The notes under the pieces are model-generated. The model made no database searches. It was not told where the DNA came from and saw only the letters and a list, made by a program, of their open reading frames with translations. From positions 32,001 through 96,000 of the forward strand of contig CAWFJP010000031.1 in NCBI GenBank assembly GCA_963816145.1: 64,000 bases of DNA, given 5' to 3'. Source of the stretch: an uncultured delta proteobacterium. GTDB lineage: Bacteria; Desulfobacterota; Binatia; UBA9968. The position numbers and the translations under genes are program-made. Below, piece after piece: positions 38,253 through 54,887 of the stretch; positions within the stretch are counted from its first letter, which is position 1; every line of letters begins with the position of its first letter.

Positions 38253-38726
38253 TCATGAGCGCGGAACTTTGCTGCCTTCCATCGGGTAGCGTTTTTCATA
38301 CCAGCCGACGATGCCTTCGTTCAGCACTTTCATATTGCGAAAACCGTTTTCGTAAAGAATGCCATAGGCCAGACTGGCCAGGTGATGGGGGCATGCTCAA
38401 TAGAGTACCACCGGTCGGTCGCGCGGAATGCTCTTTAGATACTCTTTGAACTCCCCAAGCGGCGCCGACTGGGCGCCCAAAATATGCACCTCGTCGAACT
38501 CCTCTTTGGTTCGGACATCAATCAACATCGGCTTGGCGCCGGTTTTGAGTTCGTCGACGAGTTGATCGATGCCGATAAACTCGGGTGTGACATCCGGCGG
38601 TAGAGTTTGTTGGGCAAATTCCGGATACTTCGAGGGATCGGCATGGGCGCCGGGCACGGTGATGAGGCTTAGACCGAGCGCAAGTCCAGCGGCAGTCAGA
38701 TACAGGTTCGATCGGATTCGCTTCAT
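38253..38726 (-). CDS. Exported rhodanese-domain selenoprotein (Sec at UGA 38397-38399, Y-U-A-C-P)
   Basis: ORF track stops at VVLY*, but the frame continues ACPHHLASLAYGILYENGFRNMKVLNEGIVGWYEKRYP, completing the rhodanese fold; UGA is at the catalytic Cys position; signal peptide present. Confidence 0.85.
38359..38394 (-). promoter_or_regulatory. Putative bacterial SECIS element
   Basis: Immediately 3' of the UGA: lower stem AUGCC/GGCAU and apical GGCCA-GUC-UGGCC, with a loop G about 23 nt from the UGA. Confidence 0.65.
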
Positions 38727-39595
38727 GGGTTTGCCCCCGGAGCGGTATATTTAGTCAGCTGTGCCAGCGTATCCAAGGATTGGACCCCGGTGGTGCGCTG
38801 TCCGTTAATAATCCAGGTCGGATAACTTTGGATATCCTTATCCTTGCAGACCGCCGCTTGTGGCGCTTGCGGGCCGCCGGGGCTGCATTCGACATAAGGG
38901 AGCCGTTTCACCGAACTGCCGAATAGTTTCTTTTGTTCCTGGCAATGCGGACACCATGACGCGCCGTAAAACTTCGCGTCGGACTTTGCCAGATGTTCGG
39001 CTAGCCCTTTGACCCATGGATCTTCCGGGCCGGGCGCGTCGCCCCAGTAGCCGGCGAAATAGAGATGGAGCGCGACGACGATCGCGGCACCGACCCCGGC
39101 GCTCTTGCCCAACCAGGGGCCCCAGGAAAAGTTCGGCAAGTTCGCCGGCTTTTGGAAGGTGGTCATGATAAAGATGACCGCCATGATGCCGAGGGAAGTG
39201 AGGCAGTAGGGACAGGTGGCCTTCAGATCGAAAATTGCCATAGAAGTCAGATATAGACTAAACAGCAAACCGAAGAGCGAGATCACCCAAGCCCAGCGCC
39301 ATTGATTGTCAGCGTAGCGGTTCCACGACACCGCAGCGAGCACCCCGTAGGTTAAAAATCCCCAGAAAGAAGTCGGCATGCCGAACAATGTCGACCATTT
39401 GCTGTTCAACACGACATCACAGCCGCTGCCCGCGACACAAAAGGCGACCAGTTTTTCCGCCCAGGCGGTGTAGGTGAGATAAGCCGACAAGATCATGCCC
39501 AGCGTTGACAGGGCAAAGAGCGGCCAGTTGGGTCCATCGCGCAAGAGCGCTTTTGCCGGTTGCTTACCTTTGGGGTTTTTCTTGTCGCTAGCCAT
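38723..39595 (-). CDS. VKOR-thioredoxin fusion (disulfide formation)
   Basis: C..GSGCDVVL, TCPYC and C-terminal FYGASWCPHC Trx domain. Confidence 0.92.
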   Translation of the reverse strand: MASDKKNPKGKQPAKALLRDGPNWPLFALSTLGMILSAYLTYTAWAEKLVAFCVAGSGCDVVLNSKWSTLFGMPTSFWGFLTYGVLAAVSWNRYADNQWRWAWVISLFGLLFSLYLTSMAIFDLKATCPYCLTSLGIMAVIFIMTTFQKPANLPNFSWGPWLGKSAGVGAAIVVALHLYFAGYWGDAPGPEDPWVKGLAEHLAKSDAKFYGASWCPHCQEQKKLFGSSVKRLPYVECSPGGPQAPQAAVCKDKDIQSYPTWIINGQRTTGVQSLDTLAQLTKYTAPGANP

Positions 39596-39598
39596 CGA

Positions 39599-40243
39599 TC
39601 ATCCTTTCAACAAGGTTTCTACGTCGTTTCTGAGCCGCGCCAGACTATCCATCGCGCGGCTATCGTAGTAACCGCGGATTTGCGCCTGCGGATCGATCAA
39701 GACAAAGCGCGGGCTGTGCGGAATCATGCCGTTACCTTCGAGGCTGTCGGGAAGCGTTGCGACGCTCAAGTGAAAGCCGTCGCGGACAAGCTTAATCACC
39801 TGATCTCGCTGTCCGGTGAGAAAGTACCAGCGTTGTCGATCGGCTTCATGTTTGTCGGCGTAGGCGCTTAGCACCTGCGGCGTGTCCCGCTCCGGATCGA
39901 CGCTGATGGAGACGAATTGGACGTTTGCTTTTGACGCGAACTCTTTTTGCAGCTTGGCCATGGTTGCTGTCTGCAACGGACAAGTGTCGGTGCAAGTGGT
40001 GTAAATAAAGTCAGCGATCCAAATCTTGCCGCGCAGTTCCGTCATGGCGACGTCTTTGCCGCTGCGTTCGGTGAGTGTGAAGTCCGGCACCGTGCCATAT
40101 TGCTTCAACCCGTCGTCGTCGGCGCGATCCGCCAAAACGACGCGCGGCGGCGGCCCGAGTTTCAGCCACAACACCGTGCCGAGGATCACGCCCAAGCCGA
40201 TTACGGCAGCACCTAGCAAGAAGAACCGTTTTGCGTCGTTCAT
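39599..40243 (-). CDS. SCO/SenC family protein (#1)
   Basis: FIYTTCTDTCP, SVDPERD and PHSPRF. Confidence 0.92.
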   Translation of the reverse strand: MNDAKRFFLLGAAVIGLGVILGTVLWLKLGPPPRVVLADRADDDGLKQYGTVPDFTLTERSGKDVAMTELRGKIWIADFIYTTCTDTCPLQTATMAKLQKEFASKANVQFVSISVDPERDTPQVLSAYADKHEADRQRWYFLTGQRDQVIKLVRDGFHLSVATLPDSLEGNGMIPHSPRFVLIDPQAQIRGYYDSRAMDSLARLRNDVETLLKG

Positions 40244-40402
40244 ATGGGAAAAAAGGTATCGACAATCGATTTTATCGGTTAAATGGCCATTTGTGTAGAG
40301 CGGTGTGGGAAAACGTGACTAACTTCGGTTGCCAATAATGATTCTTCGCCAGTCCGAGAGTGGATCAGCCTTATTCTATCCGCACGTCAGAATTCACCTC
40401 GC

Positions 40403-40963
40403 CTATCCCGGCGGAATCTTCTCGATCAGTTTTCCTTTCATGAAAAGCTCGTAGCCTCTTAGCGACAGCTCATAAGCGCGCGGCGAGTGGTCGGACATGT
40501 CGGAGACGACCAGGTCTAAAATTAGCAGCGTTTCGCTATTAGGCTGGATGTCGTAGTTTAGTTTGAACCGGCCGATGGTGTTTTTTACCGGGGTCTTGCG
40601 TTGGGCTTTCTTCAATATAGCGGTGATGCTTTTAATTTTTAAATGAAATGCGTCGAAGGCGCCGGCATCGATGGGCGCACGGAACACTTGGGCGGAGTTT
40701 TTGCCGAGATACTTGGTCAGATCGATCGGCTCCGAAGTGACAGCGAGATCTTTCCAGCCGGTCTGCCAGAACTTCAGGCCCGGTTTGGGGCTGACTGATA
40801 TTTTATCGATGGCGACGATGACTTTGTCAAAATCGCCGATGGCATCGCGGTGGTCTTTGATCCGGATTTCCAGGATGCCTTGTCCACGCTCGGCAGCTTG
40901 CGCGTGAATCGATGCGCCGAAGATCAACAGCGCTATGATTAGGATTTTTCGGATTCGAGCCAT
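40403..40963 (-). CDS. Exported protein, DUF4382-like
   Basis: Signal peptide; IRIKDH..IGDFDKVIVAI, IDLT and LILDL pattern; family call tentative. Confidence 0.55.
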   Translation of the reverse strand: MARIRKILIIALLIFGASIHAQAAERGQGILEIRIKDHRDAIGDFDKVIVAIDKISVSPKPGLKFWQTGWKDLAVTSEPIDLTKYLGKNSAQVFRAPIDAGAFDAFHLKIKSITAILKKAQRKTPVKNTIGRFKLNYDIQPNSETLLILDLVVSDMSDHSPRAYELSLRGYELFMKGKLIEKIPPG

Positions 40964-53755: not shown

Positions 53756-53775
53756 ATAAATCTCTTTGGAATTTC

Positions 53776-53802
53776 GTAACACAAATCGTAAATATGTGTC
53801 AA
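53776..53802. promoter_or_regulatory. Putative NikR operator overlapping the nikR promoter
   Basis: GTAACAC-N13-GTGTCAA; the right half contains the minus-strand -35 TTGACA. Confidence 0.6.
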
Positions 53803-53862
53803 CTGCGACTCCGAATTCGGTCAGTTGGCCGCACTCCTTTGCTATGCTAGATCTATAGTGAC

Positions 53863-54291
53863 GTGACGCTATTTGGCACTCTAGCAACTTCACTCCTATT
53901 TGCCTTTGTGGCCGGCTGTGGCCGCAACGAACGTATGGACCTGATCTATGGGCAAAGATGCGCGAATTGCCATGGCCCGGGCGGCCGCGGCGATGGGACA
54001 ATCGCCGCATCATTGCAAACGCCACCGCCAGACTTTCGTGATACGGTTCAGCGCAAAAGCAACAGTCAAATTAGAAGAGTCATCGCCGAAGGTAAGGGCG
54101 CTATGCCGGCGTTCGATCCCGCGCTACGGCCTTCTGAAATTAACGATATGTTGCAGATGGTTCGCTTCTTGAGCCGGGAAGGGCGCGATCTCGCTTGGTG
54201 GGAGAAGTACGATACCTTGATCGCGGCGCATTGCAGTATTCCGTGGGAAGCGGCGTTGGGGCTCGACGATGCGCCGGAGAAAAAACCGTGA
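53863..54291 (+). CDS. Lipoprotein monoheme cytochrome c
   Basis: VAGC lipobox, CANCH, MPAF; extra C-terminal HC. Confidence 0.85.
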   Translation: MTLFGTLATSLLFAFVAGCGRNERMDLIYGQRCANCHGPGGRGDGTIAASLQTPPPDFRDTVQRKSNSQIRRVIAEGKGAMPAFDPALRPSEINDMLQMVRFLSREGRDLAWWEKYDTLIAAHCSIPWEAALGLDDAPEKKP

Positions 54292-54887
54292 AATTAAGCA
54301 TAACTTATTGCCTTGTCGTCTTAGCGCTTGCGGCTAATTCCGTTGGCAATCAAGCAGTGGCGCATGAAGTTCAGCAAAAAACTGTTGAACGTCGTGCGGT
54401 GGTGATCCCAATTAATGATTTTACTCTGGTCGATCAGAATTCGCGAGAGTTTCAATTTTCTAATTTGACGGGGCGCGTGGTGGTCGTGGCGTTCACTTAC
54501 ACCACATGCCCGGATGTTTGTCCGTTGCTCACGGCAGCGCTGCGCCAGGTGCAAGTTGGCTTGACTCCGGATGAACGTAAGAAGGTTTTTTTGCTTTCTA
54601 TCACCACCGATCCTGAGATCGACTCGCCGAAGGTTCTTCTCGGTTACGGCAAACGCTACGGCGCTGATTCCTCCAATTGGTCTTTTCTTACCGGCGATCA
54701 AGCGGCGTTGCAAAAAGTCTGGAAAAACTTTGGCGTTGGCGTAAAACGCCAGGCACGGGGTTTGGTGGATCATACGCCGCTGACGGCGGTGGTCGATCGT
54801 CACGGTAAAATGCGCGTGGCGTATGTTGGCCCGGCGCCCGATGCGAAACTGGTTTTGCGGGATGTTCGTGGTTTACTGGCCCAATGA
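54288..54887 (+). CDS. SCO/SenC family protein (#3)
   Basis: FTYTTCPDVCP, TTDPE and VDHT; GTGA overlap with the cytochrome c gene. Confidence 0.9.
   Translation: MKLSITYCLVVLALAANSVGNQAVAHEVQQKTVERRAVVIPINDFTLVDQNSREFQFSNLTGRVVVVAFTYTTCPDVCPLLTAALRQVQVGLTPDERKKVFLLSITTDPEIDSPKVLLGYGKRYGADSSNWSFLTGDQAALQKVWKNFGVGVKRQARGLVDHTPLTAVVDRHGKMRVAYVGPAPDAKLVLRDVRGLLAQ

Follow-up and report, generated by a model that had tools for sequence, protein, structure and literature searches.

A conserved gene array of an uncultured soil bacterium joins putatively nickel-regulated outer-membrane uptake genes with copper-chaperone and thiol-redox genes

Gene content of the array

The 64,000-nucleotide (nt) stretch analysed here (hereafter the window; contig CAWFJP010000031.1 of assembly GCA_963816145.1) comes from an uncultured soil bacterium of the class Binatia, whose genome comprises 7.8 Mb in 31 contigs. 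Within the window lies a conserved array of about 17 kb that joins nickel-regulated outer-membrane uptake genes with genes of the copper-chaperone and thiol-redox kinds, flanked by queC (37557-38249) on one side and by zapA and a 5-formyltetrahydrofolate cyclo-ligase gene (55342-56586) on the other. Pfam and NCBIfam profiles identify, on the minus strand and in order, nikR, a TonB-dependent receptor, an MFS permease, exbB, exbD, tonB, a His-rich exported protein and an open reading frame (ORF) of 131 amino acids (aa), followed by a BNR protein, a TlpA/ResA-like redoxin, Cox11-like C, a methyltransferase, and Cox11-like B and A. The minus-strand series ends with SCO1, a DUF4382 protein, SCO2, VKOR with a WCPHC domain, and a rhodanese. 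A monohaem cytochrome c gene and then SCO3 lie on the plus strand, divergent from nikR. A first-pass annotation of positions 38253-54887 had named these genes in this order and had placed cytochrome c and SCO opposite nikR; the profile searches confirmed the gene list and the divergent arrangement.

The array is not a chance arrangement. Conservation of the neighbourhood across genomes had been proposed as a check, and the cluster recurs in 35 related loci, where the Cox11-like gene is accompanied by SCO in 27, by DUF4382 in 25, by the ORF with a C-terminal RAPP motif in 17 and by NikR in 10. Several of these loci end early at contig ends.

Among the scanned ORFs of at least 150 aa, the remainder of the window codes for complex I, GroEL, Lon, RecA, AlaRS and similar proteins. 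Structural genes for hydrogenase, urease or oxidase were not seen among these ORFs, in agreement with the first-pass annotation. The complex I operon (nuoB to nuoN-like genes) occupies positions 1-10090, and a further cytochrome c is located at 13460-13933. Metatranscriptome contigs from one library match parts of the genes for DUF4382, Cox11-like A, B and C, BNR, ExbD, the MFS start and SCO3 with 0 to 11 differences. Because such contigs reveal neither transcription nor operon structure, they were not used as evidence.

NikR, its putative operators and the uptake genes

The features of the uptake part of the array are listed below in window positions.

53339..53755, minus strand: nikR, 138 aa, ribbon-helix-helix and NikR_C domains; the start is taken near 53755 and not at that of a 228-aa ORF
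53776..53802: NikR box O1, TTGACAC-N13-GTGTTAC, no mismatches, within the 107 bp that separate the divergent nikR and cytochrome c genes
53296..53322: NikR box O2, GTAACAC-N13-ATACTAT, one mismatch, overlapping a promoter-like site upstream of the receptor gene
51367..53280, minus strand: TonB-dependent receptor, 637 aa, plug and barrel domains
49866..51134, minus strand: MFS permease, MFS_1 at 184.8 bits
49231..49833, minus strand: ExbB, PF01618 at 110.6 bits
48818..49231, minus strand: ExbD, PF02472 at 106.2 bits
48002..48821, minus strand: TonB, in two frames in the window, with the N-terminal part in one and TonB_C (72.5 bits) in another

The nikR product matches both expected domains (PF01402, 29.9 bits; PF08753, 93.8 bits) and the NCBIfam equivalog NF003381 (175.3 bits; cut-off 105). 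Over its full length it can be aligned with the solved NikR 2BJ1 (E 6e-35), and it retains the pattern QH...HxH...HNCLE; in the ligand region the alignment sets QH and LHIHLDEHNCLE, listed first, against LHVHMDEHNCLE. The His, HxH and Cys residues of this pattern are presumably the ligands of the high-affinity nickel site. No other NikR_C match occurs in the host genome. On its sequence this protein is a standard nickel regulator, for which nickel-dependent DNA binding is predicted.

Operators were searched for with a degenerate IUPAC inverted-repeat pattern over the 64-kb window, with shuffled sequences as a control. The pattern gave three matches at two places where 0.63 were expected, and 6 of 100 shuffles reached three. 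Box O1 is kept in 8 orthologous loci. The region of box O2 contains a -35/-10-like pair at 53322-53293, and its orthologues read GTARCAC-N13-GTRYTAY, one of them (L016) being the perfect palindrome GTAGCAC-N13-GTGCTAC. Both boxes fit the 'reversed' type of NikR signal predicted for delta-proteobacteria by Rodionov and colleagues, a 27-bp GTAACAC-N13-GTGTTAC as given in PMC545781. With the degenerate pattern, no NikR box was found in the window upstream of the distal (chaperone) genes, and in two related loci of another family (L032 and L034) the interval from nikR to the next gene holds only half-site-like repeats and no full palindrome. Over the whole genome the pattern matched 50 times, against 108 times for the reversed control; it is too loose at that scale, so that no wider NikR regulon can be drawn. 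A run of seven T residues lies right after the nikR stop and just before O2 (53323-53338) and is kept in orthologous loci; no hairpin was noticed preceding it.

The closest solved chains to the receptor (BtuB, Cir and FepA) align with its plug only. Across six orthologues the residues His80, His98, His116, His118, His126 and His466 are conserved, five of them in the plug, and no Cys or Met is conserved. In the permease, Cys29, His32 and His36 of the first hydrophobic segment are conserved in nine orthologues. CcoA-like MFS copper importers (CalT) carry MxxxM and HxxxM in helices 7 and 8, according to the literature on them; neither motif was seen in the second half of the permease. A paralogue of the permease on contig C14 has unrelated neighbours, which give no hint of a substrate. 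The tonB gene named in the first-pass annotation is present, but frameshifted in the window. Base 48306 is absent from one contig of run X1, and without that base tonB becomes a single 272-aa ORF, so the frameshift is likely an assembly indel or a strain variant. The orthologues of tonB are single ORFs.

The leader ORF and the chaperone and thiol-redox genes

Between the uptake genes and the chaperone genes lies the 131-aa ORF.

47004..47399, minus strand: DUF2946-like leader ORF, 131 aa, ending in QRAPPLI and the stop

This ORF begins with a hydrophobic N-terminal segment (judged by eye) and continues with a conserved SAPHRVHHFF, a His-rich stretch and a Cys/His motif, which is followed about 50 residues later by RAPP, two residues from the stop. 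RAPP falls inside the final 10 residues of 16 of 19 orthologous ORFs, the exceptions being one second copy and two frame-damaged copies. DUF2946 (PF11162) matches 11 of 13 leader orthologues with E values from 4.8e-5 to 6.1, is the best Pfam match in 10 of them, and is always matched up to the end of the profile. The sole match above the cut-off is that of the leader of L028 (24.5 bits against 23.7); the window leader gives no match to PF11162 at E values up to 10. Judged by these orthologues, the ORF is a divergent member of the DUF2946 (CutF/CruR) family, a class tied experimentally to copper.

For CutF and CruR, PMC9973294 describes a control of the downstream gene that depends on copper bound by the nascent exported peptide and on a proline motif at its C-terminus. 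The same paper gives, for arrest leaders, a length below 150 aa, PP within the last 15 residues and a same-strand gene no more than 1000 nt downstream; the window leader has 131 aa, RAPP, and 117 nt to the next gene. RAPP upstream ORFs (uORFs) with localisation signals are reported upstream of TonB receptor, YcnI, PCuAC, PepSY and thioredoxin-like genes in PMC12992588. Because RAPP recurs in 16 of the 19 orthologous ORFs and DUF2946 in 11 of the 13 orthologues, it is very likely that the ORF is a translational-arrest leader, and metal-dependent stalling is predicted. Of the two control layers claimed in the first-pass annotation, NikR operators and an arrest sensor, the former is present as boxes at two promoters and the latter is very likely, but the NikR layer was not seen before the distal genes.

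A hairpin masking the ribosome-binding site of the BNR gene was not found, the fold of the 181 nt concerned being no better than shuffles (z -1.31). The spacer between leader and BNR gene does contain a local hairpin (46930-46975), about 45 nt upstream of the ribosome-binding site and not covering it, which is kept in four loci with 4 of its 10 pairs changed on both sides. In L017, L018 and G170 the leader is followed by CopC-CopD.

The remaining genes of the array are as follows.

53863..54291, plus strand: monohaem cytochrome c, probably a lipoprotein; CANCH, hydrophobic N-terminus, PF13442 at 42.6 bits
54195..54887, plus strand: SCO3, likely start near 54288, overlapping the cytochrome c stop; PF02630 at 90.3 bits, CPDVC and a downstream His
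47460..47939, minus strand: exported His/Met-rich beta-sandwich-like protein, DUF4399-related by BLASTP
45561..46886, minus strand: BNR/sialidase-fold protein, probably a lipoprotein; BNR_2 at 38 bits
44995..45564, minus strand: TlpA/ResA-like periplasmic thiol-disulfide oxidoreductase, WCDPC; AhpC-TSA and Redoxin
44052..45011, minus strand: Cox11-like C, Pfam Cox11 at 16.5 bits, motif ECGLL
43383..44003, minus strand: class I SAM-methyltransferase fold with an N-terminal signal-like segment; Methyltransf_31 and others
42421..43338, minus strand: Cox11-like B, PF04442 at 28 bits, motif DCGFIL
41537..42424, minus strand: Cox11-like A, membrane anchor, NTF2-like and Cox11 domains; PF04442 at 41.5 bits
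40939..41559, minus strand: SCO1, PF02630 at 104.2 bits, CPDVC and His
40403..40963, minus strand: DUF4382 protein, PF14321 at 39.8 bits (cut-off 25)
39599..40243, minus strand: SCO2, PF02630 at 106.2 bits, CTDTC and His
38723..39595, minus strand: VKOR with a C-terminal thioredoxin-like WCPHC domain; PF07884 at 90.3 bits
38253..38726, minus strand: exported rhodanese selenoprotein, in-frame TGA at 38397-38399, read-through LY-U-ACPHH

All three SCO proteins retain CxxxC and the distal His, and the cytochrome c-SCO3 pair is conserved in nine loci with NikR and three without. Of the three genes called Cox11-like in the first-pass annotation, A and B pass the Pfam cut-off for Cox11 (PF04442, 25 bits), while C, which is 33% identical to A and B, falls below it. 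Cox11-like A matches the solved Cox11 1SO9 by sequence (E 1e-6). An AlphaFold model of it built on a 55-sequence alignment (pLDDT 89.7; a single-sequence model with pLDDT 36.6 was discarded) contains a membrane helix at residues 3-24, an NTF2-like domain and a Cox11 domain. ApoCox11 is its best fold match (1SO9, Foldseek E 4.6e-6; 1SP0, VIA Z 10.6 with a root-mean-square deviation of 2.6 over 110 residues), and residues 31-180 resemble NTF2-like folds with Z of only 7-8. Of the CFCF motif, only the first Cys is left in the three window paralogues (ECALL, DCGFIL and ECGLL), the second Cys being missing in every intact main-type (family f1) Binatia copy, and main-type proteins carry an invariant His 16 residues upstream of the reduced motif. 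QCFCF is retained in L032, L034, L035, L036, L038 and L040. Relatives from families f2 and f3 and from Methylomirabilis and spirochaete metagenome-assembled genomes have QCFCF.

The DUF4382 protein has conserved His38, His107 and His159, and is fused to Cox11 in a Nitrospinota locus (L037) and, by tblastn, in L058 and L063 of family f2. The His-rich exported protein is similar (BLASTP E 5e-6) to a DUF4399 protein encoded beside a multicopper oxidase in L030; His105 and His107 (HxH), Met117, His133 and His144 are conserved in 32 copies, and in L017 and L018 CopD carries a DUF4399-like domain as a C-terminal fusion. In the BNR protein Cys20, Cys237, Cys239, Cys240, Cys296 and His298 are conserved in 11 orthologues, and its atlas neighbours bear generic BNR names only. 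Searches of solved structures gave nothing useful for either the His-rich or the BNR protein. A literature search on DUF4399 and DUF4382 found five papers, and in each of the four listed the term occurs once.

In NCBIfam the redoxin scores 100.9 bits with the ResA subfamily (cut-off 170) and 58.7 bits with TlpA (cut-off 230), and by these scores is best described as a TlpA/ResA-like CxxC redoxin, not as a TlpA equivalog. The methyltransferase, at 137 bits with NF041081 (cut-off 200), is the best-conserved gene of the cluster, with 67-87% identity in related loci; 14 matches to it occur in the host genome, at its own place in the window and at 13 others, with 42-100% identity among the matches listed.

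In the rhodanese, the in-frame TGA replaces the catalytic Cys and the frame stays open for 47 further codons. All 11 full-length copies, that of the window among them, preserve this TGA and the 40 nt after it, and the host genome has a tRNA-Sec gene (C30:576761-576855). The reading of this gene as a selenocysteine (Sec) rhodanese in the first-pass annotation agrees with the codon and the tRNA; the hairpin predicted after the TGA has an energy no better than shuffles (z -0.15), though its nucleotides are strongly conserved. The rhodanese next to VKOR is, from its codons, an exported U-x-C selenoprotein, and is new as a variant.

Distribution, interpretation and comparison with known systems

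Two samples were searched, 151 genomes across the class and 61 genomes from one order. Cox11 domains occur in 14 of the 151, all from one order, and in none of 133 genomes of the other 16 families. In the order sample the Cox11 domain is found in 41 of 61 genomes, COX1 in 56, NikR in 18 and urease in 10. NikR is lacking in 28 of the 41 Cox11-bearing genomes, 19 of which belong to family f2, where none of 27 genomes has NikR. The related loci show six architectures.

Architecture 1: the window type
Architecture 2: the window type, with CopC-(DUF4198)-CopD instead of BNR-TlpA behind the leader
Architecture 3 (G170, G020): nikR, weak NicO-like permease, leader, DUF4198-CopC-CopD, Cox11 (CFCF), SCO, VKOR
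Architecture 4 (family f3): nikR, ZnuA-type ABC importer, Cox11, DUF4382, SCO, VKOR
Architecture 5 (family f2): as in family f3, without NikR (ZnuA-ABC-ABC3-Cox11::DUF4382-SCO-VKOR)
Architecture 6 (G105, G166): chaperone genes alone at the same chromosomal site (zapA-SCO3 to queC)

G105 and G166 are without NikR, receptor, MFS, TonB and leader. In L007, positions 4200-5300 hold short nikR, tonB and BNR fragments between SCO3 and TlpA, and the uptake module appears to have been deleted there. In other families of the class NikR stands beside a TonB receptor (G037, G088) or beside CbiM-CbiQ-ATPase, a NikMQO-type set (G004), with no Cox11 or SCO genes within about 10 kb on either side. More distant Cox11-like relatives lie with PCuAC and cytochrome c (L037), with a two-domain multicopper oxidase (L030), or with TlpA, SCO and cytochrome c (L036).

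A genome of the same genus has a second nikR locus (L081, G145:C2:59800-79700), which occupies the zapA-SCO3-cytochrome c site; after its nikR follow an MFS gene, a TonB C-terminal match (76%), an AAA ATPase, a cupin, a methyltransferase and a ZnuA-type binding protein. In the related metagenome-assembled genome of L033, tblastn breaks most of the island genes into two or three pieces that lie in different frames; frequent indels from long-read assembly look a better explanation for this than decay of the genes.

The first-pass annotation had also proposed looking for co-occurrence with nickel or copper enzymes, and the host genome holds both kinds outside the window. Its urease operon is complete and has no neighbouring nickel transporter gene, and the [NiFe] hydrogenase large subunit gave only sub-threshold N-terminal matches. 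On other contigs, two operons for aa3-type oxidases encode the CuA motif CAELCGFGHSGM, and neither has assembly-factor genes as neighbours. SCO homologues in the host genome are confined to the island (three of three, tblastn), as are Cox11 domains, and PCuAC was not found by tblastn. PmoA gave no match, but neither did its control. In the order sample only 4 of the 18 NikR-bearing genomes have urease, and of five high-quality genomes with NikR but no urease, two encode [NiFe] hydrogenase. The search for Ni-SOD in NikR-bearing genomes is uninformative because the control also failed to match.

In our estimate the chance is about even (roughly 0.5) that the array consists of a nickel-uptake module beside a copper-centre assembly module, both of known kinds. 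The first would be made up of nikR, the two NikR boxes, the receptor, the MFS permease and ExbB-ExbD-TonB, and would provide nickel-repressed, TonB-energised uptake. With ample nickel, Ni-NikR on O1 and O2 would silence nikR and the receptor operon; O1, being within the 107-bp promoter region common to both directions, may silence the divergent cytochrome c-SCO3 pair as well. The imported nickel would most likely supply the urease. The second module, from the DUF4399-like protein through the Sec-rhodanese, would be a periplasmic copper-handling and thiol-redox set. Its DUF2946-family nascent peptide with RAPP would stall the ribosome in a metal-dependent manner, probably in response to copper, and we propose that expression of the genes behind the leader is tuned in this way. 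SCO1-3, the TlpA-like reductase and the three Cox11-like proteins would then metallate CuA and CuB of the two aa3-type oxidases, and perhaps other cuproproteins, with VKOR and its thioredoxin-like domain and the Sec-rhodanese setting the redox state of the ligand cysteines. Each module is found alone elsewhere, and the two are losable independently. What the sequences show directly are the gene identities, the operator sites, the conserved motifs and the occurrence in other genomes; the metals, the repression, the stalling, the clients and any co-transcription of the modules are inferred from these.

Several observations weigh against this reading. Nickel sensing and the chaperone cluster are neighbours more persistently than is usual for chance neighbours: of the 13 genomes with both NikR and Cox11, 10 have them within 17 kb on one contig, and in the other three they lie on different contigs of fragmented assemblies (one of these three, G145, has an additional second pair 172 kb apart). 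This adjacency spans three importer types (receptor and MFS, ZnuA-type ABC, weak NicO-like permease) and reaches family f3, where the flanking synteny has already decayed. In L032 and L034, nikR, znuABC-like genes, Cox11, DUF4382, SCO and VKOR are spaced like one operon, and in the window O1 stands in the promoter region that nikR has in common with cytochrome c-SCO3. DUF4198, which we take to be nickel/cobalt-associated, sits among CopC and CopD genes. The near-complete NikR-bearing genomes G047, G172 and G151 have no match to urease, [NiFe] hydrogenase, prismane/CODH or LarA, so that the nickel regulon there has no known client. On the copper side, genus g6 includes seven closed or near-closed genomes that carry COX1 and no Cox11 domain, so that oxidase assembly in this lineage can do without the module. 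Moreover, the Cox11-like paralogues may not bind Cu(I) in the canonical way, because they lack the second CFCF Cys and carry the invariant His.

The first-pass annotation had taken the array for a nickel regulon with redeployed copper-chaperone folds. A single nickel regulon of this kind, in which proteins of the SCO, Cox11, CopC-CopD and DUF2946 types carry nickel across the periplasm to a nickel protein or importer, seems to us improbable. It would account for the NikR gene and boxes that head the array, the closeness of NikR to the cluster across three importer types, the operon-like spacing in L032 and L034, and the three genomes without urease, [NiFe] hydrogenase, CODH or LarA. The prevalence of His among the conserved ligands of the receptor plug, the DUF4382 protein and the leader, and the Cox11-like paralogues with an invariant His and one Cys fewer, point the same way, as do the His-only CutF-like clusters noted in PMC9973294 as neighbours of HupE/UreJ. 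However, the nickel-regulon claim is at odds with the absence of NikR from more than half of the Cox11-bearing genomes (28 of 41, family f2 foremost), with the chaperone genes of G105 and G166 that stand without uptake genes, and with the lack of a NikR box ahead of the distal genes in the window; in further Binatia families NikR accompanies a nickel importer without chaperone genes. Redeployment of the folds for nickel is disfavoured by the copper-linked RAPP/DUF2946 family, by CopC, CopD, PCuAC and multicopper oxidase in related clusters, by CxxxC and His in all three SCOs, by CFCF in relatives from families f2 and f3 and outside Binatia, and by the conserved Met among the His residues of the DUF4399-like protein. 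The two CuA oxidases would also be left with no SCO in the host genome. Similarly doubtful is a form in which, in this order of Binatia, the NikR regulon took in a periplasmic relay of the copper-chaperone type, made up of SCO, long-form Cox11 with a Cys/His site, CopC/CopD, DUF4382 and a RAPP leader, that carries nickel, or enforces discrimination between nickel and copper, for a client other than urease, hydrogenase, CODH or LarA. A nickel relay, if true, would be the first extracytoplasmic nickel metallochaperone pathway. A literature search for a link of NikR with Sco or Cox11 found no such paper among the best 10 of 392 matches.

We also think it unlikely that the whole island serves copper, with the receptor, the permease and the ABC importer of the relatives acquiring copper or a mixed-metal chelate for the chaperones, in the manner of CcoA or CopCD, and NikR closing this route at toxic nickel levels. 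Family f2 does have an importer in an operon-like array with Cox11, SCO and VKOR even without NikR, CopC and CopD occur in the same arrays, and the leader family includes CruR, a copper-responsive controller of a TonB receptor; cytoplasmic import is moreover part of copper delivery to the cbb3 oxidase in Rhodobacter, according to the literature on it. Yet the permease lacks the MxxxM and HxxxM motifs of CcoA, the receptor conserves His residues but neither Cys nor Met, G037 and G088 combine NikR and a TonB receptor with no copper genes nearby, and the ZnuA-like binding protein aligns best with proteins of the Mn/Zn type. There is, lastly, a slim chance that the chaperone-like genes are not there for the haem-copper oxidases but for some other client outside the cytoplasm or for redox work on thiols, sulfur or selenium, e.g. 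maturation of the Cys-rich BNR protein or of a cuproenzyme. The seven COX1-bearing genomes without Cox11, the lack of Cox11 from the 133 sampled genomes of the other 16 Binatia families, and the altered metal motif of the window paralogues would fit such a task, and the Sec-rhodanese, VKOR, the exported methyltransferase fold and the CxCC-bearing BNR protein are foreign to known oxidase assembly lines. Against it, the multicopper oxidase of L030 is the only alternative client in the island or related loci, and the island holds the only SCOs of a genome with two CuA oxidases.

If the array is indeed a nickel-uptake module beside a copper-centre assembly module, the island is mainly a matter of tidy annotation, which assigns to Binatia a NikR/TonB route for nickel that uses an MFS permease, and a leader-controlled copper-centre assembly set. 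It would also extend the metal-sensing arrest-peptide class to a new phylum, though published lists of RAPP ORFs may already hold Binatia members. The parts belong to known families and both control layers are known mechanisms. New as variants are the long NTF2-Cox11 form with its single-Cys paralogues, DUF4382 as a recurrent and sometimes fused partner of Cox11, the MFS partner for a NikR-controlled receptor, and the lasting association of a nickel regulator with a copper-type cluster. This persistent association is a concrete case in which possible extracytoplasmic cross-talk between the two metals could be tested. The altered-site NTF2-Cox11 family, the DUF4382 partner and the Sec-rhodanese beside VKOR merit attention separately.

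Compared with CutF of Rhodobacter capsulatus and CruR of Bordetella pertussis, the island leader is likewise an ORF of less than 150 aa with a hydrophobic N-terminus, Cys/His residues about 50 residues before RAPP, and a same-strand gene 117 nt downstream, and 11 of its 13 orthologues match DUF2946. It differs in that the window copy itself stays below the Pfam DUF2946 threshold, stalling being a prediction here, and in that the next genes are BNR and TlpA-like (CopC/CopD in relatives) instead of a multicopper oxidase or TonB receptor; no hairpin masking the ribosome-binding site was found at the island leader.

Assembly of the copper centres of aa3-type oxidases involves Sco/SenC, TlpA, Cox11/CtaG and PCuAC, with roles described in Bradyrhizobium and Rhodobacter. 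The island shares with this set the CxxxC-His SCO, a TlpA-like CxxC reductase and a membrane-anchored Cox11 fold, and oxidases with the CuA motif are available as candidate clients in the genome. It departs from the set in having three SCOs and three Cox11-like proteins, the latter with an inserted NTF2-like domain, a single CFCF Cys and an invariant His. No PCuAC was detected in the host genome (tblastn), and DUF4382, VKOR with its thioredoxin-like domain, the Sec-rhodanese and the methyltransferase fold are extra.

The sco operon of Streptomyces combines Sco, the PCuAC-like ECuC and a CopCD-like importer, and CopC/CopD are arrayed with SCO in L017, L018 and G170 as well. RAPP uORFs precede copper genes in S. 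lividans, as reported in PMC12992588. The window differs from the Streptomyces operon in having a BNR-TlpA pair instead of CopC/CopD, and a NikR module upstream.

In Helicobacter, FrpB4 and ExbBD-TonB form a TonB-dependent nickel uptake system within the NikR regulon. The island resembles nickel regulons of the NikR/TonB type in the conserved NikR ligands, in the 27-bp inverted repeat at the regulator's own and the transporter promoters, and in a receptor with its own ExbB-ExbD-TonB. Unlike them, it has an MFS permease as inner-membrane partner in place of NikABCDE, NikMNQO or NiCoT, and it is joined to a copper-type cluster.

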